Position numbers and translations under genes: made by a program. DNA of 60,204 nucleotides, the filler included. It is 4 parts of 4 records of this genome, joined end to end, with 100 filler letters (N's around TTAATTAATTAA, not from the genome) between each part and the next. Parts side by side here need not be neighbours in the genome. Positions count along the whole stretch, not along the records: positions 42,638 to 55,058 come from SRR31156797_3559; 3 more parts are not named here. One strand, written 5' to 3'. A model generated the notes under the pieces. That model searched no databases. It was not told the origin of the DNA and saw nothing but the letters and a program-made list of their open reading frames with translations. This document shows positions 42,538 to 58,035 of this stretch, one piece after another. How positions within the stretch are numbered: position 1 is the stretch's first letter; each line of letters begins with the position of its first letter.

Positions 42538-42637
42538 NNNNNNNNNNNNNNNNNNNNNNNNNNNNNNNNNNNNNNNNNNNNTTAATTAATTAANNNNNNN
42601 NNNNNNNNNNNNNNNNNNNNNNNNNNNNNNNNNNNNN
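42538..42637. other. Artificial contig linker
   Basis: N44-TTAATTAATTAA-N44. Confidence 0.99.
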
Positions 42638-42728
42638 AAAATTAGAACCTTTGCATCGATTTTTGCGGTACTTTTTCTAAAAAAGTAGTAAGTAGAACAA
42701 TGCCAGTGACAATCCTCAATAAAACATA

Positions 42729-43892
42729 TTAAATTCTATTTTGTCTTGTATCAAAAACTCTCAATAAACTCTCTAAAACCTCTCTCTTATCTTCACTCTC
42801 TTCATAAATTAATCGTCCCTCAATCTCATCCCTGACTTGAAATAAAGCCACTTCACACTCATCTATAGCCACATCTAACTCTTTTTGAGTCAATCCACAA
42901 GTTTGAGTCCCAAATCTCTTTAAATACTTTTTATCCCACCACTTTTTACTTCCAAGTAATAATAATGCAGGAATATCATTTTTAATATATACTACAGTCG
43001 ATACCACATCATAAGCAGGAGCTAGTCTTATATTATCAATTCCATCATATATAAGTCCAAAATTCTTAAGATGTGCATCACCATTTTTCACTAGATAATT
43101 TATATAGATCATTTTAAAAAACTGTGTTATTGAAGATTTTTTATATTTCCTTGATACAAATATTTTAATATTTTTCACCACTTGTTCATAAGAGCCTTCA
43201 TATTTATCATCTCTTTGTTTCCCCATTAATACACACATATCTTCAAAACCAATATATTTATCTCCAACCTTATCAAAACGTTTCATAATAAAAAGCTTCT
43301 CATCATCCGAAATATAAAACTCTGGAACTTCTACTCCTGCACCTTGTACTATTTTCATACAATAGTATTCATTGAGAGCAAGCTCCTGATACTCATCTCC
43401 CCATGATTTTACTATATAGTCATCACATCTTAGAGTAGCTTTATCTTCTATTGTTGCTAAAATTTTTGGTTGTACCCCACTAAGCGCTGAATGAAGTGCA
43501 AATCTATTTACAAGTTCATCAAAAAGATCATCACTTTTTGGATGAAGTAATTGATCTAGTGTTAAATCACTTTTTATAAAATGGTGCTTTGATTCATAAG
43601 AAATTCTTCCTTTAATAGAACCTGCCATAATATTTAACAGTCCAAAATCATCTGTTTTGGTCAATTTTGAAAAATGTTTTTTTATAATAGAAAGTAAAAA
43701 TCCCTCAGGTAAGTGCATTTCAAAAATTGGATGAAGTTTTTTATATATAAAAGGTTTTTGTCGTACTGGCATAATTAAAGAGATATAACTCTCTTTATCT
43801 TCTACTTCATAAGAAAAAAGATACTCGTCATTTTCTTTAATAAGCTTTCCTATTTGCCTATCATCTACTTTTATATTTAGTCCATCAGCCAT
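42729..43892 (-). CDS. hipA: HipA family kinase toxin
   Basis: N-terminal coupling domain (ISLIMP..LHPIFEMHLPEG), SGVQPK, KRFD, GFED, NGDAHLKNFG, LAPAYD. Confidence 0.93.
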   Translation of the reverse strand: MADGLNIKVDDRQIGKLIKENDEYLFSYEVEDKESYISLIMPVRQKPFIYKKLHPIFEMHLPEGFLLSIIKKHFSKLTKTDDFGLLNIMAGSIKGRISYESKHHFIKSDLTLDQLLHPKSDDLFDELVNRFALHSALSGVQPKILATIEDKATLRCDDYIVKSWGDEYQELALNEYYCMKIVQGAGVEVPEFYISDDEKLFIMKRFDKVGDKYIGFEDMCVLMGKQRDDKYEGSYEQVVKNIKIFVSRKYKKSSITQFFKMIYINYLVKNGDAHLKNFGLIYDGIDNIRLAPAYDVVSTVVYIKNDIPALLLLGSKKWWDKKYLKRFGTQTCGLTQKELDVAIDECEVALFQVRDEIEGRLIYEESEDKREVLESLLRVFDTRQNRI

Positions 43893-44124
43893 TTACAATA
43901 TCCTCAAACACAGGAAAAAGAGCTTTTTCTTTTAAAACAAATTCATACCCCAAATAGTCTGCTATTTGTATCACTTTATTCAATCCAATTTCATGGCTAG
44001 TGCCATTTTCAAAATTACTAATAGTAGCTCTTGAGATATGTAAATCTTTACTCATAGTTTGTTGTGAAATATTTTTAACTTTTCGTAAACTTTTTAGTTC
44101 ACTTCCCAATTCATAAAAGTCCAT
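43885..44124 (-). CDS. hipB: HipB-like XRE antitoxin
   Basis: HTH LRKVKNISQQTMSKDLHISRATISNFENG; overlaps the hipA start by 8 nt. Confidence 0.88.
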   Translation of the reverse strand: MDFYELGSELKSLRKVKNISQQTMSKDLHISRATISNFENGTSHEIGLNKVIQIADYLGYEFVLKEKALFPVFEDIVNG

Positions 44125-44138
44125 TTAGTCTTCCATTT

Positions 44139-44197
44139 TGAATAATATATTAGTCATTATATTATATTTATATCTTATTGTCAAATATTTTAGTCAA
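44139..44197 (-). promoter_or_regulatory. hipBA promoter with two palindromic operators
   Basis: Minus strand TTGACA (44184-79), 17 bp, TATAAT (44161-56); TGAATAATATATTAGTCA (44139-56) and TGTCAAATATTTTAGTCA (44179-96). Confidence 0.7.
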
Positions 44198-44213
44198 TTA
44201 AATTTATAACAAT

Positions 44214-44244
44214 AAAAAAGCCCCATCAAAAAGATGAGGCTTTT
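44214..44244 (-). terminator. Intrinsic terminator ending the lsr-like cluster
   Basis: Minus strand AAAAGCCTCATC-loop-GATGGGGCTTTTTT. Confidence 0.8.
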
Positions 44245-44265
44245 CAAATAAGTTCTCTAAAGTTC

Positions 44266-44556
44266 TTATCCAAGAATCTCCAACTCCTCAGTATACTTAT
44301 CATCACAATAAGGCTCAAAAGAAGACTTATACACAGCATAATGCTCTGTTTGTTTATGCCCCTCTAAAGCCTCTTCACTCTCCCAAGACTCCACTGCGTA
44401 AAACTTTCTTTTATTCTCAATACACTGATAAATATCATAAAAAACTACACCAGGTTCTTTTTTAGAGGGTTCAACCATCGCTGTTAAAAGCTCTTTCATC
44501 TTCTCTTCACAACCCTCTTTTGCTATAAATGTTACTCTTTTTGTTATACTTGCCAT
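44266..44556 (-). CDS. ABM-family (antibiotic biosynthesis monooxygenase fold) protein, LsrG-like
   Basis: S..EPG..YD, FY..E.W, HKQTEHY (compare LsrG HKTTPHY); 96 aa; context downstream of lsrK. Confidence 0.75.
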   Translation of the reverse strand: MASITKRVTFIAKEGCEEKMKELLTAMVEPSKKEPGVVFYDIYQCIENKRKFYAVESWESEEALEGHKQTEHYAVYKSSFEPYCDDKYTEELEILG

Positions 44557-44574
44557 ACTTTTCCTTTTATAATT

Positions 44575-46191
44575 TTATAGATCTTCTTTTGGGATTCCAA
44601 AATAGTACCCTTGTGAATAATCGATCTCCAAGTCAATCACTTTATTAAATATCTCTTCACTACTTACATACTCAGCTACAGTTTTTATCCCCATCTCTTT
44701 TGCAAAAGAGACTATCGCTTTTACGATTGATTGGGAAGAGAGATCATAATCGATTTTTTCGATTAAACTTCCATCGATCTTAATAAAATCTGCTTTTAAT
44801 TTCATAAGATAGGTAAAGTTTGAATACCCACTTCCAAAATCATCTATTGCTATCTTACATCCTAGACTTTTAAGCTTGGAGATCACTTCAATGACTGTTT
44901 CATAGTTATTGATCTCTTCTGTTTCTGTTATCTCTAAAGTAGCTTGTTTGGCTAGTTTTGTATCTTGAAACACATCTAAAAGAAGATTGACTGTTTTTTC
45001 ATTTTCAAAGTCTTCTATTGAGAGATTGATAGAAAAGTCTAGATTATTATCTCGAAATTTTTCTACGGTATCTTCTAGGATCTTTTTTGTAAGGTATGAG
45101 TAGAGTTTCGTTTGTTTTGAGATAGTTAAAAAGTGAAATGGTGAGACAATATTACCATTTTCATCGATCAGTCTTACTAAAGATTCATACTTTTTATACT
45201 CCAGTGTTTTATTATCTACGATTGGTTGATAAAACGCTTTAAGTTTATTATCGAAGATCGCTTCATTTAATCTTTGGGTCCATAAAAGATTTTTTTCTAT
45301 CTCTTTTTGTAAGTTTATCTCTTTTGAATAGACTTGGAGTCTTTTTTTATTTGCTTTTGCATATTGGAGTGCTACATCTGCATATTGGTAGATCTTCTGT
45401 TTATTCTCATATCCTGCTAGACCACTTACTACATTTACGTAGATATGACTATTTGATATAGTGATAGGTTTTGAAGCGATATATTGAGTAAACTCTAAAA
45501 CAAGATTTTTTAACTTCTCTATTGGCTCTTGAGTTAAAATAGCAAAAATATCTATTGGCAATCTATAAAGGTGACAATCAAAATTTTCAGTAAAAGTTTG
45601 AAGCTCTTTACTAAGTATTTGTAAAAGTTTATCCCCTATCACATGTCCATAAAAATCATTGATATGTTTAAAGCTTGCTATATCTATAAGAGCAAGGTTA
45701 TGATCTACATCAAAATCTGTATCTTCAAGGAGTGCTGTTCTACTTTTTAGATGAGTCACTTCATCGATTCTTGCTTTTTCTAAAAGTTTTTGAGTCTCTA
45801 GTAGTTGAGTGATATTATTTCTAAGCCCTATATACTCTATGATCTCTCCAGCATCATCAACTATAGGGATGATCATAGTATCTACATAGTAGTATGAACC
45901 ATCTTTTGCTAGGTTTTTAACGATCCCTTTCCATACTTTTTTTGCCCGAATCGTCTGCCATAGCTCTTTAAATAATGTAGGGGGAGACTCAGGATGTCTA
46001 ATGATATTATGATTTTTTCCAAGAAGCTCTACTTTGGAGTATTTGGATATCTCTATAAACCGTTCATTTACATAAGTAATGACCCCTGATGGATCTGTTT
46101 TTGATACAATCATAGAAAGATCTACAGCATTTTTATATTGTTCTAAAAGTTGTTGTGGTGAAGCCTCGTGTTTGATCATGCAGTTATCCAA
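44575..46191 (-). CDS. PAS / degenerate GGDEF / EAL c-di-GMP phosphodiesterase
   Basis: Aer/NifL-like PAS (NHNIIRHP, LWQTI), GGDEF replaced by PIDIF, ESLVR, DDFGSGYS, KIDG, AEYV; start may be ATG 46179. Confidence 0.9.
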   Translation of the reverse strand: MDNCMIKHEASPQQLLEQYKNAVDLSMIVSKTDPSGVITYVNERFIEISKYSKVELLGKNHNIIRHPESPPTLFKELWQTIRAKKVWKGIVKNLAKDGSYYYVDTMIIPIVDDAGEIIEYIGLRNNITQLLETQKLLEKARIDEVTHLKSRTALLEDTDFDVDHNLALIDIASFKHINDFYGHVIGDKLLQILSKELQTFTENFDCHLYRLPIDIFAILTQEPIEKLKNLVLEFTQYIASKPITISNSHIYVNVVSGLAGYENKQKIYQYADVALQYAKANKKRLQVYSKEINLQKEIEKNLLWTQRLNEAIFDNKLKAFYQPIVDNKTLEYKKYESLVRLIDENGNIVSPFHFLTISKQTKLYSYLTKKILEDTVEKFRDNNLDFSINLSIEDFENEKTVNLLLDVFQDTKLAKQATLEITETEEINNYETVIEVISKLKSLGCKIAIDDFGSGYSNFTYLMKLKADFIKIDGSLIEKIDYDLSSQSIVKAIVSFAKEMGIKTVAEYVSSEEIFNKVIDLEIDYSQGYYFGIPKEDL

Positions 46192-46259
46192 ATTAATTTT
46201 AAATATTGTATTATTATTTGTTTGAAAAAGTTATAAAAACAACCCTTTTTAGGGTTATT

Positions 46260-47819
46260 TTACACTCCTGGAGCTTTCCACATAGAAGTGGTAAGTCCAT
46301 TGTCTACTAATTTTAGCTGTTCATTATATATCTCTTGCCATTTCTGCTTTATCTTTTTATATTCTTGATAGTTTTGCATATTTGGAAGATACTCTTTTTC
46401 CCATACTACTAGCTCCTTTGCTGCAGTTTGTAAAGAATCATATATCTTTGCTCCAACTCCTGCAGCCATCGCAGCTCCTAAAGCTGTCGCTTCAGTAACT
46501 TTTGGGATCTCTACTTTACATCCTGTTACATCTGCTAAGATTTGACACCAAAGCTTTCCTTTACTTGCTCCTCCTGCAAATACTATTTTATCAGTTTTTA
46601 TTCCAGAAAAAAACTCTATTTTTTTTAGATTAATATCACTTACAATCGCTGCATTTTCTTGTAAACTTCGAAACATACTCGCTTTATTGCATATATTTGG
46701 ATCAAGGCTTAAATTTATAAAGCTAGGACTTGCATGGTACCATTTTCCATACTTCATACTATCACTAAAAATAGGGATGATACCGTTTGATCCTACAGGA
46801 ATTTTACTCGCTTTTTCTTCCATAATCTCATATACATCACACCCTTTTTCTTTTGCTTCTAGTTTTTCAAGATCACAAAAAGCATCACGAAACCATCTCA
46901 TAATAAGTCCACTAAAAAAAGTGATCCCCTCAGCTTGAGAGAGCATAGGGATCACATGAGGATTGACTCGTATCTCCATATCTTTTGGAGGCAGTGTAGA
47001 GGAAGAGATATTGACAACTTGCTGCCAAAATGATCCACCTAAGATCGCCACATCACCAAGCCCGACTACTCCAAGCCCTGCACTTCCAAGCTGTACATCT
47101 CCACCACCTTGAACCACATGTGTAGAGCTATCCAGTCCACTTGAGTTATCACTTACCTTTGCGATCACTTCCCCTACTTCTAAAACCTCTGGAAAAATAT
47201 CCTCTTTTATCCCCACTTGTTTTGCCATAGAGCTTAGCCAGCCTCTATTTTCTAGAGAAAATATCCCTGAAGTTCCTCCATTACTTGGATCACTAGTGAG
47301 CTTTCCACACAATTTATATAGTACCCAATCACTGATCATAGAGATCTTGTCTATTTTTTCATAAAGTTCTGGTTTATTATTTTTTTGCCACAAGATTCTA
47401 GGAAGTGCTCCAAGAGCAAAGGTTTGCCCTGAGAGTTTATAAAACTCCTCTTCAATTTCGGGGAAATTTTCTTTTAAATACTTGACCTCTTTATCTGCTC
47501 TTGCATCTACATTTGCCACTGCAAAAAGCTCACATCCATCTTTATCATAAAGAACGATCCCCTCACGCATACTAGTAGAACTCACTGCTAAAATATCTTT
47601 TGGATCAATGTTTCCACTTTGAAGCGCTTCTTTTATACACTCTTTTGTTAGTTCCCAGTTTGTATCACAATCAAAGCTCATAGAGTTAGAAACCCCATCC
47701 TCTTCAATATGAGTCCACTCCCTTTGCCCTATAGATATTTGATCCCCTTTAGTATTAAAGATCACTGCTCTTATACTTCCAGTTCCTGCATCTAGTGCCA
47801 TCAAATATTTTTCCATCAC
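46260..47819 (-). CDS. lsrK: Autoinducer-2 kinase (FGGY family)
   Basis: YLMALDAGTGSIRAVIF, SMREGIVLY, ANVDARA, SGQTFALGALPR, GGSFWQQVVN, RVNPHVIP, GLTTSMWKAPG, segments I recall from enterobacterial LsrK. Confidence 0.92.
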   Translation of the reverse strand: MMEKYLMALDAGTGSIRAVIFNTKGDQISIGQREWTHIEEDGVSNSMSFDCDTNWELTKECIKEALQSGNIDPKDILAVSSTSMREGIVLYDKDGCELFAVANVDARADKEVKYLKENFPEIEEEFYKLSGQTFALGALPRILWQKNNKPELYEKIDKISMISDWVLYKLCGKLTSDPSNGGTSGIFSLENRGWLSSMAKQVGIKEDIFPEVLEVGEVIAKVSDNSSGLDSSTHVVQGGGDVQLGSAGLGVVGLGDVAILGGSFWQQVVNISSSTLPPKDMEIRVNPHVIPMLSQAEGITFFSGLIMRWFRDAFCDLEKLEAKEKGCDVYEIMEEKASKIPVGSNGIIPIFSDSMKYGKWYHASPSFINLSLDPNICNKASMFRSLQENAAIVSDINLKKIEFFSGIKTDKIVFAGGASKGKLWCQILADVTGCKVEIPKVTEATALGAAMAAGVGAKIYDSLQTAAKELVVWEKEYLPNMQNYQEYKKIKQKWQEIYNEQLKLVDNGLTTSMWKAPGV

Positions 47820-47825
47820 TGCTCC

Positions 47826-48434
47826 TTATTTTAGCTTTGGTAAAGTCCAATTGTATTTTCTAGCAACCACCCGTAATGCTACCCCTATACAAAATACCAT
47901 TAAAATTGTTGCAAAATTTAAGATCTGGGAAATATGTAAAAGATACATTAAAATAGCAATGATAATAGCAACAGTTCCATAAAAGTCTTTTGAGAGTACA
48001 AGAGGGACATGATTGATAAGTACATCTCTTATGATCCCTCCTCCCACTGCTGTAATAAATGAAAGAATGATCACTCCAAAAAAGTTTGCTCCCATCCCAA
48101 TAGCCACTAATGCTCCAGAGATACTAAAAGAGATAAGTCCAATGGAATCACTTAGGACAAAAAGCTCTTTTCGATCAAGATTCTCTTTATGATGAAGTTT
48201 TAAAGCCATTGCAAAAAGAAGGGTGAGAAGAACTATCAAAGGAAGAGTAGAGTCTACAAATGCATATGGAATCTCTCCAGCTATAGTATCTCGAATAATC
48301 CCTCCACCAAGAGCAGTCACAAAAGCCATTAAAAAAACACCAAGCATATCAAGCTCATGTTTTATAGATATCAAAAACCCACTCAAAGCAAAAGAGATGA
48401 TCCCAATAATATCTATAAAATAAAAGAGTTCCAT
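47826..48434 (-). CDS. TRIC / YadS (UPF0126) membrane protein
   Basis: Duplicated FALSG..TALGGGIIRD / FSISG..TAVGGGIIRD. Confidence 0.92.
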   Translation of the reverse strand: MELFYFIDIIGIISFALSGFLISIKHELDMLGVFLMAFVTALGGGIIRDTIAGEIPYAFVDSTLPLIVLLTLLFAMALKLHHKENLDRKELFVLSDSIGLISFSISGALVAIGMGANFFGVIILSFITAVGGGIIRDVLINHVPLVLSKDFYGTVAIIIAILMYLLHISQILNFATILMVFCIGVALRVVARKYNWTLPKLK

Positions 48435-48458
48435 ATATTTTTACTTTTTACTATTTTT

Positions 48459-49628
48459 CTACTTTTTTAACTTCGCTTGCTCAAGTTCCCAATATTCCAT
48501 ATCAAAACTATCTCTTAAAGAGATCGATTCATATCCACCAAGGAGATCAGATCGTAAAACAGCATTCATAGTATGCTCTATCACATCATTGATGATATTA
48601 GCCTCTTTCTCATTTTTTCCAAAAGAAACTACTCCATAGTTTTCTATTACAGCATAATTTGGAGCTGGATTTAACATCACCTCATCTTTTGCAAACATTT
48701 CAAAATATTCTATGTAATCCTTTTTATACTCTTCAAGTTTTGCTTTTATGTCATCCCCTTGTTTTATAATAAGTGGATGTCGTTTTGTTCGGATAATATG
48801 TTCTGGTGTTAAAACTCCACGTGTGAGCATTTCTGATTCAAGTGAAGCATAATAGAGTGCAAGTGGAGTTTGATTGATATTACAAACTATTTCACACCTT
48901 TTTTCTTTTTCCACTTCAGCTTTTAAGGTTTTTATATTAAACTCTTTTATTTCAATTGTTGGAAGTTCAAGATTTGCATATTGATCTAAAAACTCTTCTG
49001 CTAAACTTACCGCTTCTATCATCTTATCATACGATTTTTTCGCATCATCATCAAAAGTAAATATCCCATGATTATGTAAGATGATCCCCTCACACTTCTC
49101 CCAATCAAGATCTTTTAGCATCTCATAAATAGTATGAGCTAAGATAAATCCTGGCATCACATAAGGAACTATTAAAAAGTTTGGATAGATCTTTTTAATA
49201 TTTTCTATTCCATTGACATTATTCGAAATAGTCACCACTGCATCAGCATGGGTATGATCTACAAACTTAAAAGGAATGATTGCATGAAGTATCGCTTCAA
49301 CTGAAGGATTTGGTGCAGTTTTATGGATCATAGCTTCCCTCTGAGCTGCTACCATTTCACTATCACTAAGCTCTTCTACTTTTGCCATATCCTGAAGCAT
49401 AGTAAGCTCAACTGGAGCAAATCCCTCCTCTTTGATACTCACTAGATCCCATCCACTACCTTTTACAAATAAAATATCTTGTCCATCAACTTGAGACTTT
49501 ACAGAAGTATTTCCTCCACCATGAAGTACAAGTTCATCACTTCGTCCTAAAAGATTTGATGTATATACTCTTAGCTCTAAATCTGTTTTATAATGTTTTG
49601 ATTCTTCTTCAGTCCATAAGTTTTTCAT
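48459..49628 (-). CDS. Class II aldolase/adducin family protein (aldolase half of RhaEW/YuxG-type bifunctional enzymes, no SDR domain)
   Basis: GGGNTSVK, KGSG, PSVEAILH, HTHAD, HNHG, TPEH, ends FDMEYWELEQAKL. Confidence 0.88.
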   Translation of the reverse strand: MKNLWTEEESKHYKTDLELRVYTSNLLGRSDELVLHGGGNTSVKSQVDGQDILFVKGSGWDLVSIKEEGFAPVELTMLQDMAKVEELSDSEMVAAQREAMIHKTAPNPSVEAILHAIIPFKFVDHTHADAVVTISNNVNGIENIKKIYPNFLIVPYVMPGFILAHTIYEMLKDLDWEKCEGIILHNHGIFTFDDDAKKSYDKMIEAVSLAEEFLDQYANLELPTIEIKEFNIKTLKAEVEKEKRCEIVCNINQTPLALYYASLESEMLTRGVLTPEHIIRTKRHPLIIKQGDDIKAKLEEYKKDYIEYFEMFAKDEVMLNPAPNYAVIENYGVVSFGKNEKEANIINDVIEHTMNAVLRSDLLGGYESISLRDSFDMEYWELEQAKLKK

Positions 49629-49647
49629 TGATTATCCCTTTTTTATT

Positions 49648-51072
49648 TTAACTATTATCTTCTAAACTATCACTACTTAGTGCATTATCCACCAAGTTTG
49701 TATCAAGCTCTTTTTTTGGTTTGATATTTGATATCTTTTTTAACATCGTTGCTTGAGAGATAAGATTTCCTCTTCCATCACTCAGTTTTTTAAAAGCTTC
49801 ATTATATGTATCATTAGCTTTTGATATTGAATCTCCTACTTTTTTTAGATCCTCTACAAAACCATGAAACTTTTTATACAACTCTTCCGCTCTATAGTAC
49901 ACATCGCTGATACTTTGAGCTTGTCTCTCATATCTCCAAGTATTCTCTACGGCTCTGAGCGCTACTAAAAGAGTGGTAGGACTTACTAAGATGATCTTTT
50001 GTTTAAAAGCTTCATCATAAAGATTGATGTCATTTTCAAGGGCTAATAATAGTGCCCCTTCAATCGGCACGAACATAAAGATAAAATCTAAACTATTAAT
50101 AGTTTTTAGATTCTCATATTTTTTCTCACTTAGAGACTTTATATGATTTTTTAAAGCCATTATATGATTTTTTAAATGAAGTTGTTTCATCCCCTCATCT
50201 TCAGCTGAGACAAACTCATTATAACTATTTAATGAAGTTTTTGCATCAATAATAATATGTCTATCATCAGGTAAATTAATGATCACATCAGGACGAAAGC
50301 TTTTATCCTCTTCATCTTTAAGACTCACCTCTCTTTCATATTCATGTCCTCTACGAAGTCCAGAGCTTTCAAGCACTCGCTCTAGTACCATCTCACCCCA
50401 ATTTCCTTGAGTTTTCTTTTCACCTTTAAGCGCATTGGTAAGTTTAGTAGCATCTTCACTCATCTTAAGATTAAGCTCTTTTAATGTCTTTAGTTCATAT
50501 TGAAGTGCACTTCGCTCTTTTGCTTCTTTTTCATATACATCTTCTACTTTTTTCTTAAACTCACCAATTTGATTTTTCATAGGTGTTAAGATAAGCCCAA
50601 GGGATTCTTTATTTTGTTCACTAAACTTTTTACTATTTTCACTAAAGATCTTATTAGCAAGATTTTCAAACTCTACTTTTAGCTTCTCTTCACTATTTTG
50701 CAAGATTTGGATCTTCTCTTCAAAACTGTTTTTTTGCTCATCAAGTTTTGTTTGAAGAGTTGAGTTTATAGATTTATATTCGGAAAGTGTTTCATTTTGA
50801 TTTGCAAGAGTTGTTTGGAGTTTTTCTATCTGCGTTTTATACTCTAATTCTCTTTGTGTTTGAGTTATTTTTAGTTCATTAAAATACTCTTTTTGCTCAC
50901 TTAAAGTAGTTTGAGTAGTTACATTTTGTAGTTTAAGTTCATTTATCTCTTGCTCTTTTAGAGAAATTATCCCTTGAAACTCTTCTATTTTTTTTACAGC
51001 TACTCTTTGTCTATAGATAAGATATCCACTTAAAAGTGCTAAAGTTACACTTATAGCTATTGCTATTTCCAT
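49648..51072 (-). CDS. rmuC: DNA recombination protein RmuC
   Basis: N-terminal TM, coiled coil, QGNWGE..LERVLE.SGL, RPDVII..IIDAK, MFVPIE, SPTTL. Confidence 0.95.
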   Translation of the reverse strand: MEIAIAISVTLALLSGYLIYRQRVAVKKIEEFQGIISLKEQEINELKLQNVTTQTTLSEQKEYFNELKITQTQRELEYKTQIEKLQTTLANQNETLSEYKSINSTLQTKLDEQKNSFEEKIQILQNSEEKLKVEFENLANKIFSENSKKFSEQNKESLGLILTPMKNQIGEFKKKVEDVYEKEAKERSALQYELKTLKELNLKMSEDATKLTNALKGEKKTQGNWGEMVLERVLESSGLRRGHEYEREVSLKDEEDKSFRPDVIINLPDDRHIIIDAKTSLNSYNEFVSAEDEGMKQLHLKNHIMALKNHIKSLSEKKYENLKTINSLDFIFMFVPIEGALLLALENDINLYDEAFKQKIILVSPTTLLVALRAVENTWRYERQAQSISDVYYRAEELYKKFHGFVEDLKKVGDSISKANDTYNEAFKKLSDGRGNLISQATMLKKISNIKPKKELDTNLVDNALSSDSLEDNS

Positions 51073-51147
51073 GCCGATCCTTTGGTGATTTTAAAAGATT
51101 GTAACATATTCTTTTAAAGAGAAGAAAAATGATGGCAAAATGCCATC

Positions 51148-51885
51148 TTAAAATCCAAAGTGTGCAAACTCTTTAGGCTCTCTTGCTTCAAACTCATAAT
51201 CAAAGATCCGAGTGATCTTACTATGTAAAAGCATACGTTGAACTTGATTTGAAGATTTTCCATACATAAGATCTCCTACGATTGGAAGCCCAGCATGCTG
51301 AAGATGCACCCTAATTTGATGGGTTCTTCCATGTTCGATCACTAGTTTTATTTTTGATCTTCGCCCCTCTACCATATCAGGATATACATATGTTTTAGCT
51401 GGCTTTCCATTGAGCATATCTATTCTACTTTTTGCAGACTTTCCTTTAATAGTTGAGATTGGCACATCGATCACTTGCTCCTCTATCACTTTCCCCTCAA
51501 CTACTGCTGAGTACTCTTTATACACACGGTTATTTTTAAACTCTTTTATGGCTCGCTGTTGAAACTCTTCATTTTTTGCTAACAGCATCACACCACTAGT
51601 CTCACGGTCAAGACGATTGAGTAAAAAAGCTCTTGGATATTGTTCCTCTACCTCAGAAGCATTTAAAAATGCTGGTTTATCTACTACTAAAATATCATCA
51701 TCTTCAAAGATCACTCGCGCAGTTTGAATCTCTTTTATTTTAAACTTCGAACTTTCACTTAACATTCCTCTTGCAATAACTAGTTTCTTTCCATTAACAG
51801 ATACTACACCTTTATCAATTAACTCTTTTGCTTTTCCATTTGATATACCCTCTTGTTGGGCTAATAATTTATATGCTTTTTCCAT
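51148..51885 (-). CDS. RluA family pseudouridine synthase with S4-like N-terminus
   Basis: VDKP, RLDRETSG, GRTHQIRVH, PIVGD..YG, LHS. Confidence 0.93.
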   Translation of the reverse strand: MEKAYKLLAQQEGISNGKAKELIDKGVVSVNGKKLVIARGMLSESSKFKIKEIQTARVIFEDDDILVVDKPAFLNASEVEEQYPRAFLLNRLDRETSGVMLLAKNEEFQQRAIKEFKNNRVYKEYSAVVEGKVIEEQVIDVPISTIKGKSAKSRIDMLNGKPAKTYVYPDMVEGRRSKIKLVIEHGRTHQIRVHLQHAGLPIVGDLMYGKSSNQVQRMLLHSKITRIFDYEFEAREPKEFAHFGF

Positions 51886-51899
51886 ATACTAAAATCCTC

Positions 51900-53072
51900 T
51901 TATTTTATATCTTTTATATAATTTATGATTGGTTCAATATCACCTTGCTTCCCTATATGAGAAGATTGTAACCTATCTATGTTTAAAAGTGTTTCTTTTA
52001 ATTCCTCATTCTCTACTAACTTATAATTTTCCACGCACTCAAAAAGTGACTTTTGATTAAATATAGTTTTTCCACTAATCAGCTTACATCCAAAATATGC
52101 AGGCTCAATTGGATTATGTCCACCAGCTGTTTTTATAAAACCTCCACCCAATATCACCACATCACTTATGGCATAGATATTATTCAACTCTCCCATTACA
52201 TCCACAAGTATTACATCACTTGAAAAATCTTTTTTCTTTGAGTATCTATGAAAACTTATTTCACTTTTTTCATATTTTGATTTGATCAGATTATATACAC
52301 TTTCAAATCGCTCAGGATGCCTTGGAACTATTACGAGTTTTCCCATACTTCTTTCCCAAGCATCTAAGATCAGTTCCTCTTCTCTTTCATGGGTACTTCC
52401 AGCTGTTATCATTACTCCATCAGGCTTGATAAGTTCTTTTGTGATCTTTGGAAGATTTGCAAGCTTTAGGTTTCCTATCACTTCAACATCTTTTGCTCCA
52501 AGTGATTCTAACCTTTGTTTATCAAGTTCACTTTGAGCAAATACTTTATCTATATGCTTAAATATCTGTTTATAAAAAAAGCTAAATTTTTGATAGCTTT
52601 TATTGGATCTATCATTGATCCTTGCATTGATAAGTGCTGTTTTTACCCCTCTTTTTTTAGCAACTAAAAAAAGCATATACCAAAGCTCTGCTTCCATTAC
52701 CAATAAAACTTTTTGTTTTGTGATCCAAAAAGGCAAAAATATTTCAAATGGAAGATACCTTACATTTGAAACTAACTCTTTGGCTTTTGCAAATCCTGTA
52801 TTGGTAATAACTGTAAGATTAATATCATCTTTATCAAACTTTTCTAAAAGAGGTTTTAAAGCAGTAGTTTCCCCTTGTGAACAACTATGAAACCATATTT
52901 TATTTACAGGGAGTTTTGGATTATTTTGTAAAAAAAATTTTGCAGGAATTGCCTCTTTGTATTTTGGTTTTCTTAATTTAAAAAGGAGATAAGGGATAGC
53001 CAAGATATAAAGAAACACAGCTAAAAGATAATATAGATATTGAAACAAAATAATCTCCAAAATCAATTTCAA
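51900..53072 (-). CDS. waaA: Kdo transferase
   Basis: WFHSCSQGE, EAELW, INARI, GSTH..EE, VPRHPERF, GGHNPIEPA; start uncertain. Confidence 0.93.
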   Translation of the reverse strand: MKLILEIILFQYLYYLLAVFLYILAIPYLLFKLRKPKYKEAIPAKFFLQNNPKLPVNKIWFHSCSQGETTALKPLLEKFDKDDINLTVITNTGFAKAKELVSNVRYLPFEIFLPFWITKQKVLLVMEAELWYMLFLVAKKRGVKTALINARINDRSNKSYQKFSFFYKQIFKHIDKVFAQSELDKQRLESLGAKDVEVIGNLKLANLPKITKELIKPDGVMITAGSTHEREEELILDAWERSMGKLVIVPRHPERFESVYNLIKSKYEKSEISFHRYSKKKDFSSDVILVDVMGELNNIYAISDVVILGGGFIKTAGGHNPIEPAYFGCKLISGKTIFNQKSLFECVENYKLVENEELKETLLNIDRLQSSHIGKQGDIEPIINYIKDIK

Positions 53073-53108
53073 AAGAAATTGATTTTTGAATAGTTAAAGA
53101 AGTTTTTC

Positions 53109-53825
53109 TTAGTTCTCTTCTTCAGCAGCTTTATAGATAATTCTTCCACAATGTGGACATGTCATAATTTCATCACTTGTAATAAATTCACTATAGAATC
53201 TATCACTTAATTTCATATGGCATCCATAACATGCTTGTTTTTTAACAGGAACAACAGCACTCTCATTTGCCCATCTTTTGATCTTTTCATAAAAAGCCAA
53301 TACTTTAGAATCAACTTTTGAAACTAAAACAGACTTCTCTTCATAAAGCTCTCCTCGAGATTTTTCTAAGGCTGCAATATTTGTATCAATCACATCTTTA
53401 AGCTCTTTTACTGACTCTTCTTCTTCAACAAGTTTTGCTTTAAGCTCTTCAAGCTCAGCTGTTTTTGTCTCAATTAAGTTATCAAGTCTTGCAATCTCTT
53501 CATTTGCAAAACTCACTTGCTCTTTTGCGATCTCTTCTTCAAGTTGAAGTGCTTTTACTTCTTTTTCTGTTTTTACAACTTTATGTTTTCCAGCAATCTC
53601 TTCAAGCTTATCTGAAAGCTCTTTTAAGTGGATGTCATTTTTGATTCTTTTATTTTTTGTTTCATCAATTAATTGATAAAGTTTTTCAACCTCACCATTT
53701 ATCTCATCTACAACTTGACTAAAAGCTTTAAGTTTTTCTTCCTCATTTTCTATTTGAGGTTCAAACCCAACAATATCTTTATCAAACTGAGATAGTTTTA
53801 CTAACTGTGTTAAATGCTCATTCAA
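53109..53825 (-). CDS. Coiled-coil C4 zinc-ribbon protein (HP0958/CT398-like)
   Basis: Long coiled coil, then CYGC...CPHCGRI; nif3-adjacent context. Confidence 0.9.
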   Translation of the reverse strand: MNEHLTQLVKLSQFDKDIVGFEPQIENEEEKLKAFSQVVDEINGEVEKLYQLIDETKNKRIKNDIHLKELSDKLEEIAGKHKVVKTEKEVKALQLEEEIAKEQVSFANEEIARLDNLIETKTAELEELKAKLVEEEESVKELKDVIDTNIAALEKSRGELYEEKSVLVSKVDSKVLAFYEKIKRWANESAVVPVKKQACYGCHMKLSDRFYSEFITSDEIMTCPHCGRIIYKAAEEEN

Positions 53826-53848
53826 TGTTCATTTCCTCTTTTTTATAC

Positions 53849-54583
53849 TTATTTAAAACTAAACGGATTTTGTGAAGCTGTGATTATAGCTTTTTTTTCA
53901 TTTTTTTGCAAATATTCTTCTAACAACTCAATTACTAGTGTACTAAAATGTATTTCACTCTCATAGTGCATAATATCAATTAATGAAATATTTCTTGTAT
54001 ATGCTTCCATCGCTTCATGATATTTTATATCACCAGTTAAAAAACAATCAGCATCAATATATGGCAATAAACTCATCCCAGCCCCAGTAGTTAAAGCTAT
54101 AGTTTTAATCTCTTTTTTTACTTCTACAACTTTAAGTGTATCCATACCAAGCTTCTTTTTAATAAGCTCAACTAAGTCATCAAAACTCATATCCACATTT
54201 GCTATTTGAACAAAATCATCTTTTGTCTCAAAAGGAAGCCCTAATATTTTTGTTCCCACATAATGATTGAGATGAGTTTTATCAATATTGGTATGAAGTG
54301 AGATTAAAACAATATCTTTTTTAATAAGCTCTTTTACGATCATTGAACTATAATCACTATAGTTAATCGTTTTTAATGGTTTAAAGATCAAAGGATGATG
54401 AGTAATAATTAGACTGTTACTTTGAATATCTTTGATCATTTCAAGATCAAGATCCAAAGAGATATAGATATTTTCAAACTCGTCATCCATATTTCCCACA
54501 ATCAATCCAGAATTATCCCATTTTTCTTGCAACTCAAATGGACTAATTGAGTCTAATTGTTGGTAAATATCTCTTACTTTCAA
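53849..54583 (-). CDS. Nif3-like dinuclear metal protein
   Basis: WDNSGL, THHPLIF, HTNID, TGDIKYH, H.ESE. Confidence 0.93.
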   Translation of the reverse strand: MKVRDIYQQLDSISPFELQEKWDNSGLIVGNMDDEFENIYISLDLDLEMIKDIQSNSLIITHHPLIFKPLKTINYSDYSSMIVKELIKKDIVLISLHTNIDKTHLNHYVGTKILGLPFETKDDFVQIANVDMSFDDLVELIKKKLGMDTLKVVEVKKEIKTIALTTGAGMSLLPYIDADCFLTGDIKYHEAMEAYTRNISLIDIMHYESEIHFSTLVIELLEEYLQKNEKKAIITASQNPFSFK

Positions 54584-55058
54584 TTAATATCCTAATCTTT
54601 TAAGTCGCTCAGGCTCTTGTTCTTTATACATAGTTGCACATCCTAAAGAGAGTTCTCTTACTTTTAAAATATAGTTTTGTCTACTAGTTACACTAATTGC
54701 TTTTCTAGCATCTAGTGTATTAAAAGCATGAGATGCTACCATACATTGATCATATGCAGGAAGTGGAAGACCAGCTTCTAAACATCTCTTACACTCATTA
54801 AAAGCATCATCAAAGTGTTTAAAAAGCATCTCAGTATTTGCTACTTCAAAGTTATACTTACTAAACTCTATCTCACCTTCTAGATGGATATCTTTATAAG
54901 TGGTTTTCCCATACTCATTTTCATTCCAAACGATATCAAAAACCGTATCAACCCCTTGTAGATACATAGCAAGTCTCTCTGTACCATAAGTGATCTCAAC
55001 AGCAACTGGGTCACATGCTAGACCTCCAACTTGTTGGAAATAAGTAAACTGTGTTACT
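54584..55058 (-). CDS. glyQ: Glycine-tRNA ligase alpha subunit, C-terminal part
   Basis: [41 protein letters not shown]. Confidence 0.96.
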
Positions 55059-55158
55059 NNNNNNNNNNNNNNNNNNNNNNNNNNNNNNNNNNNNNNNNNN
55101 NNTTAATTAATTAANNNNNNNNNNNNNNNNNNNNNNNNNNNNNNNNNNNNNNNNNNNN
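55059..55158. other. Artificial contig linker
   Basis: N44-TTAATTAATTAA-N44. Confidence 0.99.
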
Positions 55159-55159
55159 C

Positions 55160-55291
55160 AAAACCAATTTAAGCTGGTGGATATTCGCGCTGGCAGGAGT
55201 GTTGGCATTGGGCATTGCGTTGTTAACGGTGAGTTGGCAAAGTTGGAAGGCAGCCACGCGAAATCCTGTTGAGGCACTCCGATATGAATAA
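55160..55291 (+). CDS. C-terminal end of a MacB/FtsX-type ABC permease (truncated by contig start)
   Basis: KTNLSWWIFALAGVLALGIALLTVSWQSWKAATRNPVEALRYE*. Confidence 0.9.
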   Translation, partial: KTNLSWWIFALAGVLALGIALLTVSWQSWKAATRNPVEALRYE

Positions 55292-55297
55292 TATTTT

Positions 55298-55430
55298 ACC
55301 CCAAACCCCTTAAGGGGCTTAAAAAGGTTAGCCGATAATTGAAGAGTTATGATTAGAAAAGAAAAAATAAAAGAAATGAACGCCATTTCAACCGGAGATA
55401 CATAAAGTCCCCTTTAGGGGATATAGGGGT
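55298..55430. repeat. REP/MITE-like element with palindromic, mutually inverted ends
   Basis: ACCCCAAACCCCTTAAGGGGCTT (55298-55320) and AAGTCCCCTTTAGGGGATATAGGGGT (55405-55430; reverse complement ACCCCTATATCCCCTAAAGGGGACTT). Confidence 0.65.
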
Positions 55431-55438
55431 GGCAAAAT

Positions 55439-55498
55439 AGCTGGCGAAGTAGGCGGGCTGCTACACGAAATCTCGTGGAAGCCTTGAGGTATGAATAA
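55439..55498 (+). pseudogene. Orphan remnant of a permease 3' end
   Basis: Translates SWRSRRAATRNLVEALRYE*, versus SWQSWKAATRNPVEALRYE* in the neighbours; no upstream permease sequence. Confidence 0.85.
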
Positions 55499-55600
55499 AA
55501 GCAAGTCCAAAAGGGACGGAGTTATGGTAGAAAATGGTATTGAGAATATAGATAAAATCGCAGGGCGTAGCAGTTAGAAAATTGTAAAAACAAAATAAAA

Positions 55601-58021
55601 ATGAAAAGATTACTTAAGCCAATTTACCGGAATTTGAAGAAGAATAAGGTTTTTACAGCAATTAATATTGTAGGGCTAAGTATTGGAATTAGTGTGTTTT
55701 TTATACTTACCCTGTATTTTGTGTATGAAAACAGTTACGATAAAAATATAGCAAATGCCGATAATACCTATAGAATTCAGCTTAAATTACAAAAGAACAA
55801 TCAAACCCTTTTTAATAAAGCAACTTCGACCTATAATATTGGTTCATTGGTGAAAGAAAATATTCCGGAAGTGGAAGACTATGCTCGAGGCGCATTTAAT
55901 AAATGTATGGTATATCATGAAGACACTTATTTAAATTCAGTGGAATTATTTTGGGCCGATTCAAATTTTTTAGACATAATAAAATTGGAAATGCTGCAAG
56001 GAAATAGTAAAAATGCCCTTTCGGTACCCTATACAGCCGTATTGTCGGAAGAATTAGCAAAACAATATTTTGGAGATTCAGACCCTATAAATAAAATTAT
56101 TCATGTAAACGAAAGACTACCCTTTCGAATTACAGGAATATTTAAAGGCCTACCACAAAATAGTCATTTAAACTTTAAGATGCTGTTGTCGCTATCAACC
56201 GGAAATGTTTTAGCACCAGGTTGGGGGTCAGACAATAGAAGCTGGGGCGGCTATGAATGGATTTACACCTACGTTAACCTTGTACCCGGAGCCGATCCAA
56301 AATTAGTAGAAAATAAAATTGCTGAATTGGTTAATAATAGTACCCCTGATAAATTGGTAGCTGAAAATTTACAATTTGAATTCAAACTTCAAAAAATTTC
56401 CGAAATCCATTTGAATTCAAAGCTTGAAAATGAAGTTAAACCTAACGGATCGAAGCAAAATGCATATATATATTTGCTTTTAGGCATTATAACCATAATA
56501 ATCGCCTTGATAAATTTTGTGAATTTATCCATTGCCAATGTTTATGAAAAAGTAAAAGAAGCGGGTTTACGAAAGGTAATTGGTGCCACCCGAAAGCATT
56601 TGATAATCGGCTGCATTACTGAGGCTTTTATCGTGAATTTATTAAGTACTGGTCTGGCAATTATTATAGTTACCATTTTTATTCCCTATTTTTCATCGCT
56701 AAGTGATAGTTCTTTAGCGTTATTCCTGCAAAATAGTAGTACTTATTACCTGGGTTTTCTTATCGTGCTACTGGTTGGCACAATTGTTTCTGGTATTTAT
56801 CCGGGTATTTTAATGGCCTCGTTTAAACCGGAAAAAGCAATTCGATCAAATTATACCAATGGTAAATCGGGAGTAGCTTTTAGAGATATTCTAGTAGTTT
56901 TTCAACTATCAGCATCAATCTGTTTAATTATTACAGTTGGTACAATATTTAAGCAAATGCAATATATTGGTAATAAAGATTTAGGCTATAAGGCTAACTC
57001 CGTTTTGGTTTATGATGCCCCCAGTGTATTAAATGATAGTCCAGAAAAATTTAAAAAATATAAGCACTTTAAAGAGACTGTAAAACAAATCAGTTCAGTA
57101 AAAAATGTTGCCAGTACAAGTTTTAGTATGGGAACAGAGCTTATTGATAACCGAATACTAAATCGTGTTAATAATAAAAAAATTGAAGATGTAAATTTTA
57201 AAAGAAATTATATTGATGAAGACTATTTAGATGTTTTAAATATTAAACTGCTGGCTGGGAGTAATCTAACCTCCTCGGATTATAGAAATCATAATCGAAT
57301 ACTAATCAACGAAAGTGCCTGTAAATTATTAGGCTTTAATAGTCCTAAAAATGCGGTTGGCGCCTTTGTGTCGAATAATGGTAAGTATCCTTCAGAAATA
57401 ATTGGTGTTATGGCCGATTTTCATCAAGAAAGCTTAAAAACTCCGGTTAGGCCTATGTTTTGTGTAAATGATCACCCACAAGACTTTGGTAGATACTTAA
57501 TTTCCATAAATAGCCACAACTTTAAGAAAACCATAAAGCAAATTAATACCGCTTGGGATAATAATTATGTTGATGCTCCCAAAGTATATTCCTTTATGGA
57601 TGACCAATTACAACAACTATATTTATCGGAATTGCGCTTTGGTACATTGCTGATTATTTTTACTTGTATTACTGTCTTTCTGGCCTGTCTGGGCCTGTTG
57701 GGATTAGTTTTGATTGTTACCCGAAAAAGCATTAAAGCTATTGGGGTACGAAAAGTAAACGGGGCCTCCATTACTGAAATTATTGCATTTTTAAATGCCG
57801 ATTATATAAAGCAAGTAATAATTGCCCTATTAATAGCGATACCAATTTCAGCATATTTCATGACACAATGGTTAAATACTTTTGCTTATCATACTCTATT
57901 AAGTTGGTGGATATTTGCCTTTGCAGGAATATTAATTCTTGGCATTACCTTACTTACAGTTAGTTGGCAGAGCTGGAAGGCGGCGACTCGCAATCCTGTG
58001 GAAGCACTTCGTTACGAATAA
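55601..58021 (+). CDS. MacB/FtsX-type ABC transporter permease (duplicated, about 800 aa)
   Basis: INIVGLSIG, INFVNL..KEAGLRKVIGA, SGIYP, LVVFQ, DFHQESL, LACLGLLG, IGVRKVNGA, NPVEALRYE. Confidence 0.95.
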   Translation: MKRLLKPIYRNLKKNKVFTAINIVGLSIGISVFFILTLYFVYENSYDKNIANADNTYRIQLKLQKNNQTLFNKATSTYNIGSLVKENIPEVEDYARGAFNKCMVYHEDTYLNSVELFWADSNFLDIIKLEMLQGNSKNALSVPYTAVLSEELAKQYFGDSDPINKIIHVNERLPFRITGIFKGLPQNSHLNFKMLLSLSTGNVLAPGWGSDNRSWGGYEWIYTYVNLVPGADPKLVENKIAELVNNSTPDKLVAENLQFEFKLQKISEIHLNSKLENEVKPNGSKQNAYIYLLLGIITIIIALINFVNLSIANVYEKVKEAGLRKVIGATRKHLIIGCITEAFIVNLLSTGLAIIIVTIFIPYFSSLSDSSLALFLQNSSTYYLGFLIVLLVGTIVSGIYPGILMASFKPEKAIRSNYTNGKSGVAFRDILVVFQLSASICLIITVGTIFKQMQYIGNKDLGYKANSVLVYDAPSVLNDSPEKFKKYKHFKETVKQISSVKNVASTSFSMGTELIDNRILNRVNNKKIEDVNFKRNYIDEDYLDVLNIKLLAGSNLTSSDYRNHNRILINESACKLLGFNSPKNAVGAFVSNNGKYPSEIIGVMADFHQESLKTPVRPMFCVNDHPQDFGRYLISINSHNFKKTIKQINTAWDNNYVDAPKVYSFMDDQLQQLYLSELRFGTLLIIFTCITVFLACLGLLGLVLIVTRKSIKAIGVRKVNGASITEIIAFLNADYIKQVIIALLIAIPISAYFMTQWLNTFAYHTLLSWWIFAFAGILILGITLLTVSWQSWKAATRNPVEALRYE

Positions 58022-58035
58022 CACAAAATATATTT

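Follow-up and report, generated by a model that had tools for sequence, protein, structure and literature searches.

An LsrK-linked class II aldolase-like protein in Campylobacterota and a candidate route for the breakdown of the self-made precursor of autoinducer-2

The closest described relative of the gene cluster reported here is the Lsr system of Escherichia coli and Salmonella (lsrRK and lsrACDBFG), which acts on autoinducer-2 (AI-2). According to the parts of PMC8016206 that deal with these enzymes, LsrG converts the phosphorylated AI-2 precursor 4,5-dihydroxy-2,3-pentanedione (phospho-DPD) to its 2,4-diketo-3-hydroxy isomer or the hydrate of that isomer, and LsrF moves the acetyl group to coenzyme A (CoA), leaving dihydroxyacetone phosphate (DHAP). 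The cluster lies in a stretch of 60 204 nucleotides, filler included, here called the window, and contains genes for an aldolase-like protein, a TRIC-like membrane protein, the DPD kinase LsrK, a PAS-GGDEF-EAL protein and an ABM protein. We consider it rather probable that LsrK, the class II aldolase-like protein and a small enediol-handling protein (ABM or cupin) break down DPD made by the cell itself, without the Lsr importer, repressor or thiolase.

The locus resembles Lsr in its orthologous LsrK, in the ABM fold that stands in the place of LsrG and in DHAP as the expected end product. It differs in that LsrACDB, LsrR and LsrF were not found in the five related genomes searched. LsrF is a CoA-dependent thiolase with a class I aldolase fold, whereas the candidate here has a class II, metal-type fold and an extra C-terminal domain. 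The ABM protein is under the LsrG threshold, and luxS or metK are neighbours in several lineages.

Other described pathways share parts of this logic. In 5-deoxyribose salvage, as set out in the relevant sections of PMC6079011, a kinase and an isomerase are followed by a class II aldolase as the last step, and a waste sugar derived from S-adenosylmethionine (SAM) yields DHAP and a two-carbon fragment (PMC6079011 and, in the part concerned, PMC12632272). This DHAP shunt, with an MtnA- or DrdI-type isomerase and the aldolase Ald2/DrdA, is like the locus in its order of kinase, isomerase and class II aldolase. However, the kinase here is an FGGY-type LsrK and not MtnK or DrdK, and the candidate isomerase is an ABM protein or a cupin and not MtnA. 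The proposed substrate would also bear a ketone where 5-deoxyribulose-1-phosphate has a hydroxyl, so that cleavage would need either water, giving acetate, or prior reduction. In the L-threonate/D-erythronate pathway (OtnI, OtnK and 3-OtnC), the sections on 3-OtnC in bioRxiv 10.1101/2025.05.18.654769 describe an Aldolase_II enzyme that acts after isomerase and kinase steps and decarboxylates 3-oxo-tetronate-4-phosphate to DHAP, removing a one-carbon unit from a 3-hydroxy-2-oxo-1-phosphate skeleton. The likeness, as far as those sections go, is that an Aldolase_II fold gives DHAP by removal of the C3 substituent; YgbL is among the best fold matches of the aldolase of the window (Z 17.6, identity about 18 %). 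The leaving group is CO2 there and would be an acetyl unit here, and the kinase and isomerase belong to other families. Finally, the bifunctional aldolase/short-chain dehydrogenase/reductase (SDR) proteins (PRK08324 group, RhaD-ADH type) have aldolase and middle domains that are colinear with the aldolase of the window over positions 1-400 of model NF006196. Fused aldolase-SDR members occur in the same phylum, in LsrK-positive genomes only. The aldolase of the window differs from them in having no SDR domain, in its score (431 bits, where the cut-off is 831) and in belonging to a clan of its own.

The window consists of four contigs (1-20965, 21066-42537, 42638-55058 and 55159-60204) joined by three N44-TTAATTAATTAA-N44 linkers (20966-21065, 42538-42637 and 55059-55158), and only the 12.4-kb piece at 42638-55058 (SRR31156797_3559, GC 32.1 %) is real context for the cluster. 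This piece is Arcobacteraceae-like, in keeping with the preliminary description made from the sequence of the window, which had called the contig Campylobacterota-like. That description had also reported five co-oriented genes with short gaps and a closing terminator, and all of these were re-derived on the minus strand. Successive genes, in the order aldolase, TRIC, lsrK, PAS-GGDEF-EAL and ABM, are separated by 24, 6, 68 and 18 bp. The end of rmuC lies 19 bp upstream, and an intrinsic terminator (44215-44245, minus strand; 13-pair stem with 5 G-C pairs and a T-run) closes the cluster.

The kinase gene, lsrK (46260-47819, minus strand), encodes 519 amino acids with the Pfam domains FGGY_N (145 bits) and FGGY_C (79.6 bits). 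With the NCBIfam AI-2 kinase equivalog NF008187 (cut-off 528), the protein reaches 843.3 bits. The runner-up NCBIfam model is XylB (188.6 bits), and none of the XylB, fuculokinase and rhamnulokinase models exceeds 189 bits. Compared with the PDB, the best match is 5ya0, the LsrK of E. coli (616 bits), followed by glycerol kinase (109 bits), and identity to LsrK of E. coli K-12 is 54 % across 519 residues. The equivalog score, the PDB comparison and the identity all concur with the earlier naming of this gene, and we regard the kinase as a true LsrK.

For a comparison of neighbourhoods, LsrK was used in a scan of one genome per species. This gave 240 relatives, and the best 80 of the 240 were used as loci (designated L; genomes are designated G). 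All 80 are from Campylobacterota, namely Arcobacteraceae, Sulfurimonas, Sulfurovum and Sulfurospirillum. Those with at least 3 kb upstream and at least 2 kb downstream of lsrK were treated as assessable (n=48), the other 32 being too short. Within 5 kb of lsrK, both the aldolase and the ABM gene were found in 38 of the 48, the aldolase only in four and the ABM only in three, and an ABM gene was thus present in 41. Linkage of kinase, aldolase and ABM is kept in all four groups, in three gene orders. The order ald-lsrK-abm is that of the Arcobacteraceae, window included, and abm-ald-lsrK is found in Sulfurimonas, Sulfurovum and Sulfurospirillum. A deep branch, in which LsrK is just 54-55 % identical to that of the window, has luxS<>ald-abm><lsrK. 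The linkage of the trio persists down to about 48 % aldolase identity. What is conserved is thus a set of three genes, for LsrK, the aldolase and ABM, and not five: the five-gene cluster of the preliminary description stands for its kinase, aldolase and ABM members and falls for TRIC and the PAS-GGDEF-EAL gene, which were found in 5 and 3 of the 80 loci, respectively. Membership of rmuC in the unit was also considered and rejected, as it is beside the cluster in just 3 of the 80 loci.

Co-occurrence was examined in 401 Campylobacterota genomes. LsrK was above the cut-off in 50 of these, and the aldolase (profile A1, E <= 1e-30) was found in 49 of the 50 LsrK-positive and in 0 of the 351 LsrK-negative genomes. 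The sole LsrK-positive genome with no aldolase match is G392, where lsrK is cut by the contig end. ABM orthologues (E <= 1e-15) were detected in 10 of the 171 genomes searched, every one of them LsrK-positive. The isomerase MtnA was present in only 20 of the 401 genomes (16 LsrK-positive and 4 LsrK-negative) and was not found in 33 of the 49 aldolase-positive genomes. In Campylobacterota, the presence of the aldolase follows LsrK, not MtnA. A search with the MtnA model TIGR00512 was likewise negative in all five related genomes, the control being positive in 9 of 14. On these counts, the DHAP shunt was rejected as the supplier of the aldolase of the window.

The aldolase gene (48459-49628, minus strand) encodes 389 amino acids and is assigned to Aldolase_II by Pfam (PF00596, 77.3 bits; gathering threshold 22.2). 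An N-terminal Aldolase_II domain (about 1-216) is followed by a conserved C-terminal domain (about 220-389), whose conserved positions include T274-P-E-H277, R280, K282, H352 and E378-Y-W, and there is no SDR domain. Its match to NF006196, a model of 657 positions, does not amount to full membership of the bifunctional family, whereas fused relatives pass with 1021 bits. The AlphaFold2 model of the protein has a pLDDT of 90.4 and a pTM of 0.86. In this model, the fold of the N-terminal domain is closest to 3m4r (VIA Z 29.7; Foldseek E 2.8e-18), and the next VIA matches are FucA, YgbL, APIP/MtnB, AraD and RhaD (Z 15-18). The C-terminal domain had no clear fold match (best VIA Z 4.2) and none by sequence. 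Together, the Pfam score and the predicted fold place the protein in the class II aldolase/adducin superfamily. The motifs HGGGNTS, KGSGW, PNPSxE, DHTH and H187-G are invariant in 36 sequences. By motif pattern, DH125-T-H127, H187-G and PSxE111 fit the metal-binding His triad and catalytic Glu of FucA, which we take to be H92, H94, H155 and E73, and the invariant set also fits the FucA phosphate site. We propose that this short-form class II aldolase-like enzyme is the terminal C-C cleaving enzyme and that it yields DHAP.

A quick maximum-likelihood tree was built from 64 aldolase domains. In it, the 51 short lsrK-linked aldolases form one clan (SH-like approximate likelihood ratio test 97) apart from the fused forms. 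Four luxS-linked aldolases make up a separate clan (support 100), and nine fused aldolase-SDR forms group together (support 89). In six genomes (G218, G250, G397, G171, G299 and G308), the sole aldolase copy is a 653-aa SDR fusion matching NF006196, located away from lsrK in an operon with mtnK (488 bits) and mtnA (417 bits). In the fusion genomes lsrK sits with metK, and in L106 the ABM gene is also nearby.

The ABM gene (44266-44556, minus strand; 96 aa) is the last of the cluster, and its product matches PF03992 with 58 bits. An hhalign comparison with E. coli LsrG gave a probability of 94 %, with 28 % identity over 68 columns. Across 36 sequences, residues E56, H67 and H72 never vary, and in the alignment they fall opposite E54, H65 and H70 of LsrG, which are reported to be functionally important there. 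The LsrG-like motif noted previously was also seen: the ABM protein has H67-K-Q-T-E-H72-Y73 where E. coli LsrG has HKTTPHY, and HKxTxHY is common to both. When E. coli LsrG was used as the query, the top match in each of the five related genomes was the lsrK-linked ABM, with about 30 % identity. Although the protein falls short of the threshold for membership of the LsrG family, it is a good candidate for the function of LsrG, and we propose that it acts as the phospho-DPD isomerase.

A cupin may fill this place in some relatives. A Cupin_2 protein of about 122-124 aa is encoded directly 3' of lsrK in 8 of the 80 loci (L020, L028, L033, L045, L052, L078, L079 and L080), six of which also have the ABM gene. 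A cupin of 122-124 aa also follows lsrK immediately in G059, G135 and G261 (L108, L109 and L110), the three genomes examined that have LsrK and the aldolase and lack an ABM orthologue. This cupin may serve as an enediol isomerase, either in place of the ABM protein or in addition to it. The third part of the conserved core would then be a small enediol-handling protein, with the cupin replacing or joining the ABM protein in some relatives.

The preliminary description had suggested that the substrate comes from the cell's own LuxS, and luxS was indeed found in all five related genomes, in 50 of 50 LsrK-positive genomes and in 356 of the 401 Campylobacterota genomes overall. It also adjoins the cluster in five genomes. 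In G369, G236 and G179, luxS (188 bits) is directly beside the aldolase gene and divergent from it, in G289 about 100 bp separate the two genes, and the fifth genome is G135. In 13 of the 80 loci (L061, L075, L105 and L106 among them) metK follows lsrK on the same strand. The adjacency of luxS and metK suggests an internal substrate. The arrangement in G135 (L109; G135:C14, 123-4948) is a tightly packed, same-strand run of ald-lsrK-cupin-luxS-metK, in which LuxS and MetK are 65 % and 71 % identical, respectively, to Pfam-checked queries. This run unites, in one apparent operon, the genes for making DPD, for synthesis of SAM and for the proposed breakdown of DPD.

The canonical Lsr partners were sought in the five related genomes, which include the genome of L001. 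Protein queries for E. coli LsrF, LsrB and LsrR, which were run without a positive control, found nothing in any of the five. The DeoC/LacD family PF01791, to which LsrF belongs, was also not found in the five (control positive in 13 of 14 genomes), nor was the SorC sugar-binding family, to which LsrR belongs. Three of the five have PF13407 proteins, which are unmatched by E. coli LsrB. The SorC and PF13407 searches, too, had positive controls. On the 12.4-kb contig, there is neither an lsrR repressor nor an lsrACDB importer gene. The earlier statement that lsrF, lsrR and lsrACDB are missing is thus valid for this contig and for the related genomes, where LsrF-type (DeoC), LsrR-type (SorC) and LsrB-like genes were not found; it does not apply to the window as one genome, because the window is four joined contigs. 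Internal salvage is favoured over eavesdropping, given that DPD arises within the cell through LuxS and that the searches revealed no importer; entry by some other route, in this lineage perhaps via TRIC, is less probable.

The proposed route would start with DPD, made in the cell by LuxS. LsrK would phosphorylate DPD at C5, and the ABM protein would shift the carbonyl via an enediol, in the manner of LsrG, to give 3-hydroxy-2,4-pentanedione-5-phosphate. This compound corresponds to 5-deoxyribulose-1-phosphate, on which the salvage aldolase acts (PMC6079011), with a keto group at C4. The aldolase-like enzyme would then hold the DHAP-enediolate on its metal and break the C3-C4 bond, producing DHAP and a two-carbon unit. 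For the short form, this unit would most likely be acetate, released by attack of water on the C4 ketone. For the aldolase-SDR fusions, it would possibly be acetaldehyde, as the SDR domain could reduce C4 first. The route would need no CoA. On balance, it would salvage or detoxify the by-product of LuxS inside the cell and would also limit AI-2 release. The alternative recycling of AI-2 from the cell's own LuxS product that had been suggested earlier is thus backed by the genomic comparisons. We infer each chemical step, the two-carbon product and the preference for salvage over eavesdropping; gene identities, linkage, co-occurrence, luxS adjacency and the failure to find Lsr partners in the genomes searched are results of the comparisons.

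A stronger version of this proposal is possible but tentative. The class II aldolase would perform a reaction new to its superfamily, a metal-dependent, CoA-independent deacetylation of 3-hydroxy-2,4-pentanedione-5-phosphate giving DHAP and acetate. The resulting 'DPD shunt', formed with LsrK and an ABM or cupin isomerase, would be a third salvage route for SAM by-products, with AI-2 as regulated overflow and with the TRIC and PAS-GGDEF-EAL proteins recruited to it.

Several observations weigh against breakdown of self-made DPD by this gene set. To our knowledge, hydrolytic retro-Claisen cleavage has not been described for any class II aldolase. The metal ligands of the aldolase were assigned by motif reading: a MAFFT alignment with E. 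coli FucA is ambiguous at H92/H94, matching H155 to H187 and N29 to N40 and splitting the HxH pair, and an hhalign comparison of the aldolase profile with FucA is uninformative (probability 0.5 %). At least seven genomes have an aldolase-SDR fusion, six of these in mtnK-mtnA operons, so that in some genomes the aldolase family clearly serves 5-deoxy- or methylthio-pentulose phosphates as well. The ABM protein has a single NCBIfam match, the LsrG model NF007791, and its score of 34.8 bits is far under the equivalog cut-off of 135. Its E/H/H residues are frequent in generic ABM proteins too, and in a comparison of the ABM profile with the PDB the uncharacterised PA3566 (57 bits) is favoured over LsrG (36 bits), LsrG structures ranking 7th and 9th among the ABM proteins. 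Nor is the ABM protein obligatory, given the three genomes (G059, G135 and G261) that hold LsrK and the aldolase without it. In 3 of the 48 assessable loci, neither the aldolase nor the ABM gene is near lsrK, and the co-occurrence counts take no account of shared ancestry. The LsrK negatives are also not fully secure, because the NF008187 search at E 1e-100 was silent in the E. coli control even though K-12 carries lsrK. However, the aldolase search found LsrK-positive genomes only, which argues against many LsrK false negatives.

An alternative explanation is that the trio, or its cupin version, catabolises another small sugar, for example a pentulose of the 5-deoxy or 1-deoxy type that arises as radical-SAM or methylthioadenosine waste. 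In a scheme like those for fucose or rhamnose, the ABM protein or cupin would be a mutarotase or isomerase, and the FGGY kinase and class II aldolase would follow, giving DHAP and acetaldehyde. Cupins are common sugar isomerases, and the ABM protein is not a threshold-level LsrG. The 'bifunctional rhamnulose-1-P aldolase/SDR' models have the aldolase family as their N-terminal portion, and the fused form of this family is in mtnK-mtnA operons in six genomes. The 5-deoxyribose pathway, in the sections of PMC6079011 that describe it, leads from a kinase through an isomerase to a class II aldolase. However, we regard this explanation as unlikely. The kinase scores far over the LsrK cut-off and is 54 % identical to a proven DPD kinase, with the XylB, fuculokinase and rhamnulokinase models at or below 189 bits. 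Furthermore, luxS is beside the cluster in five genomes and present in 50 of 50 LsrK-positive genomes, and MtnA was not found in any of the five related genomes or in 33 of the 49 with the aldolase.

The two remaining genes of the cluster bear on a further alternative, quenching of or eavesdropping on foreign AI-2. The TRIC-like/UPF0126 membrane protein (47826-48434, minus strand; 202 aa) matches PF03458 Gly_transporter (139.6 bits) and has two repeats. Its gene was found in L001, L002, L008 and L025 at the same position and in L077 downstream of lsrK, there with 46 % identity. It possibly has a role in the passage of DPD or AI-2. The PAS-GGDEF-EAL protein (44575-46191, minus strand; 538 aa) has EAL, GGDEF and PAS_3 domains in Pfam (207.6, 62.7 and 54.5 bits). 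Its GGDEF site is degenerate and reads PIDIF, which makes cyclase activity unlikely. The sequences ESL, EITE, DDFGSGYS, KIDG and QGYYF, which we take to be the EAL catalytic motifs, are kept. The protein is thus a probable cyclic di-GMP (c-di-GMP) phosphodiesterase (PDE) with a cytoplasmic PAS sensor, and what ties it to DPD is gene position alone. Its gene is at the position seen in the window only in L001 and L002, and one distant homologue makes up the third of the 80 loci. Other genes resembling this PDE gene lie near lsrK or the aldolase gene in varied arrangements (L065, 5624-6823; L104, 8128-9879; L097, 11458-13302; L098, 3535-5529; L108, 2665-4836; L110, 2210-4381). Such recurrent GGDEF/EAL neighbours could be due to chance in genomes rich in these genes.

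If foreign AI-2 were the substrate, it would enter via the TRIC-like protein, and the PAS-GGDEF-EAL protein would turn phospho-DPD into a c-di-GMP output. The positions of these genes fit this, as TRIC is between the aldolase gene and lsrK with gaps of only 24 and 6 bp, and the PDE gene is between lsrK and the ABM gene. Linkage of TRIC to lsrK in 5 of the 80 loci, once at a different position, and the recurrence of GGDEF/EAL genes in L065, L104, L097/L098 and L108/L110 also point this way. However, TRIC is missing from 75 and the PDE gene from 77 of the 80 loci, so neither is needed for the conserved function, and no LsrB-like binding protein was found in the five related genomes. The adjacency of luxS and metK points to an internal source. 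A weak terminator-like hairpin (46236-46261, minus strand; 11-pair stem with 3 G-C pairs and a T-rich tail, a consensus match only) also lies between lsrK and the PDE gene, overlapping the lsrK stop codon, and may partly split aldolase-TRIC-lsrK from PDE-ABM. GGDEF/EAL genes are presumably numerous in these genomes, which would make chance adjacency likely. We therefore consider this explanation quite unlikely and, from their distribution, interpret TRIC and the PAS-GGDEF-EAL gene as lineage-specific insertions into the ald-lsrK-abm arrangement that are not needed for the pathway. The caution expressed earlier, that Campylobacterota often co-transcribe unrelated genes, was apt for both of them, and for rmuC.

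It is very unlikely that the ABM protein or cupin is a cofactor-free or metal oxygenase that cleaves the enediol of DPD or phospho-DPD, as an acireductone dioxygenase- or ActVA-Orf6-like enzyme would, leaving a different role for the aldolase. Both families include oxygenases acting on enol or aci-reductone substrates, and the ABM protein is closer to generic ABM proteins than to LsrG. However, its one NCBIfam match is the LsrG model, and the strict co-occurrence of the aldolase with LsrK would be left unexplained. Many of the hosts are, we assume, microaerobic or anaerobic sulfur oxidisers, a poor fit for an O2-dependent core step. For this substrate, the only ABM enzyme that has been described catalyses an isomerisation, going by the account of LsrG in PMC8016206.

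The least probable explanation, inherited synteny without shared function and with LsrK acting alone, for example to trap DPD as phospho-DPD, can draw on the tight packing of unrelated genes in Campylobacterota (rmuC is only 19 bp upstream) and on counts uncorrected for phylogeny, but the linkage outlasts three gene orders and about 48 % aldolase identity, the flanking genes differ by clade (rmuC being present in just 3 of the 80 loci), and the co-occurrence of 49 of 50 versus 0 of 351 holds even where the aldolase gene is far from lsrK.

The cluster is not a misassembly. A contig from another assembly (L001) has the identical order from kdtA to the ABM gene, encoding proteins that are 97-100 % identical, and contigs from a run of a second study (X2) span the PDE gene, lsrK-TRIC and aldolase-rmuC at about 98 %. 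In a further run (X1), one contig with a depth of 7.3, compared with about 215, skips 491 bases in the TRIC gene (window 47913-48405). The short side of this contig is just 21 letters, and it may be an artefact or come from a strain that lacks TRIC.

Directly downstream of the cluster is a hipBA toxin-antitoxin pair (hipA, 42729-43892; hipB, 43885-44124). A sigma-70-like promoter, TTGACA-17-TATAAT, with a 12-of-12 match is found at 44184-44156 and belongs to hipB. Promoter-like matches were not enriched overall, with 29 found and a mean of 29.0 after shuffling. A hipBA pair (53-64 % identity) follows lsrK in L074 as well. Another piece of the window, 21066-42537, has a GC content of 50.6 %, compared with 32-36 % in the other pieces, and may come from another organism in the bin. 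Its predicted products include a GT9 heptosyltransferase, CheD, an alpha-acetolactate decarboxylase, PhoU, a nitroreductase, a PAS histidine kinase, a Zn phospholipase C-like protein, an HD-GYP-type HD_5 protein, hydantoinase A and an HDAC-like protein.

Other genes recur around lsrK in the relatives. A radical-SAM CofH/MqnC-like gene follows lsrK on the same strand in 21 of the 80 loci (including L061, L075, L105 and L106), and in Sulfurimonas-type loci metK or the CofH/MqnC-like gene is followed in turn by GT2 and PglB glycosylation genes. In or beside the cluster, at varied positions, six loci (L022, L025, L027, L036, L053 and L064) have a two-gene module resembling mobile defence systems. 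One gene encodes an AAA_15/AAA_21 ATPase, for which AbiLi is the best PADLOC match (172 bits) and PDC-M38A a further one, and the other encodes a 186-aa protein with a weak match to PDC-M38B. In L106 (7831-8491), a VapC-like toxin gene (121 bits on the VapC model) and a small upstream open reading frame separate the ABM gene from lsrK.

A survey of AI-2 receptors, in the sections that cover this group, reported neither LsrB nor LuxP in Epsilonproteobacteria and argued that the role of LuxS there is purely metabolic (PMC2561040). The lsrK passages in the main texts of that survey and of its 2012 follow-up (PMC3386761) mention no orphan kinase. Our literature searches revealed no report of a link between LsrK and a class II aldolase, nor of LsrK in these genera. 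On the present assignments, the kinase and the fold type of the isomerase would be known components, and the non-homologous terminal enzyme and the different physiological logic would be new.

The fate of DPD in LuxS-positive bacteria that lack AI-2 receptors has long been debated. The genes described here provide a candidate answer, open to testing at the bench, namely a compact, phylum-wide set that would convert self-made DPD to DHAP and dispense with the importer, the repressor and the CoA-dependent thiolase of the Lsr system. If this is correct, the aldolase-like protein would be a non-homologous replacement for LsrF and may represent a new reaction type for the class II aldolase superfamily, and AI-2 turnover would join the salvage pathways for SAM by-products. 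The 'production' of AI-2 by Arcobacter, Sulfurimonas, Sulfurovum and their relatives, from vents, sediments and animal-associated niches, would then read differently. Should the more tentative 'DPD shunt' also prove true, the LuxS branch of the methyl cycle would be closed inside the cell, and in about one in eight Campylobacterota species the release of AI-2 would be a regulated overflow and not a dedicated signal. In the lineage of the window, the TRIC-type channel and the PAS-EAL protein might then couple the flux of DPD to the control that c-di-GMP exerts on biofilm and motility.

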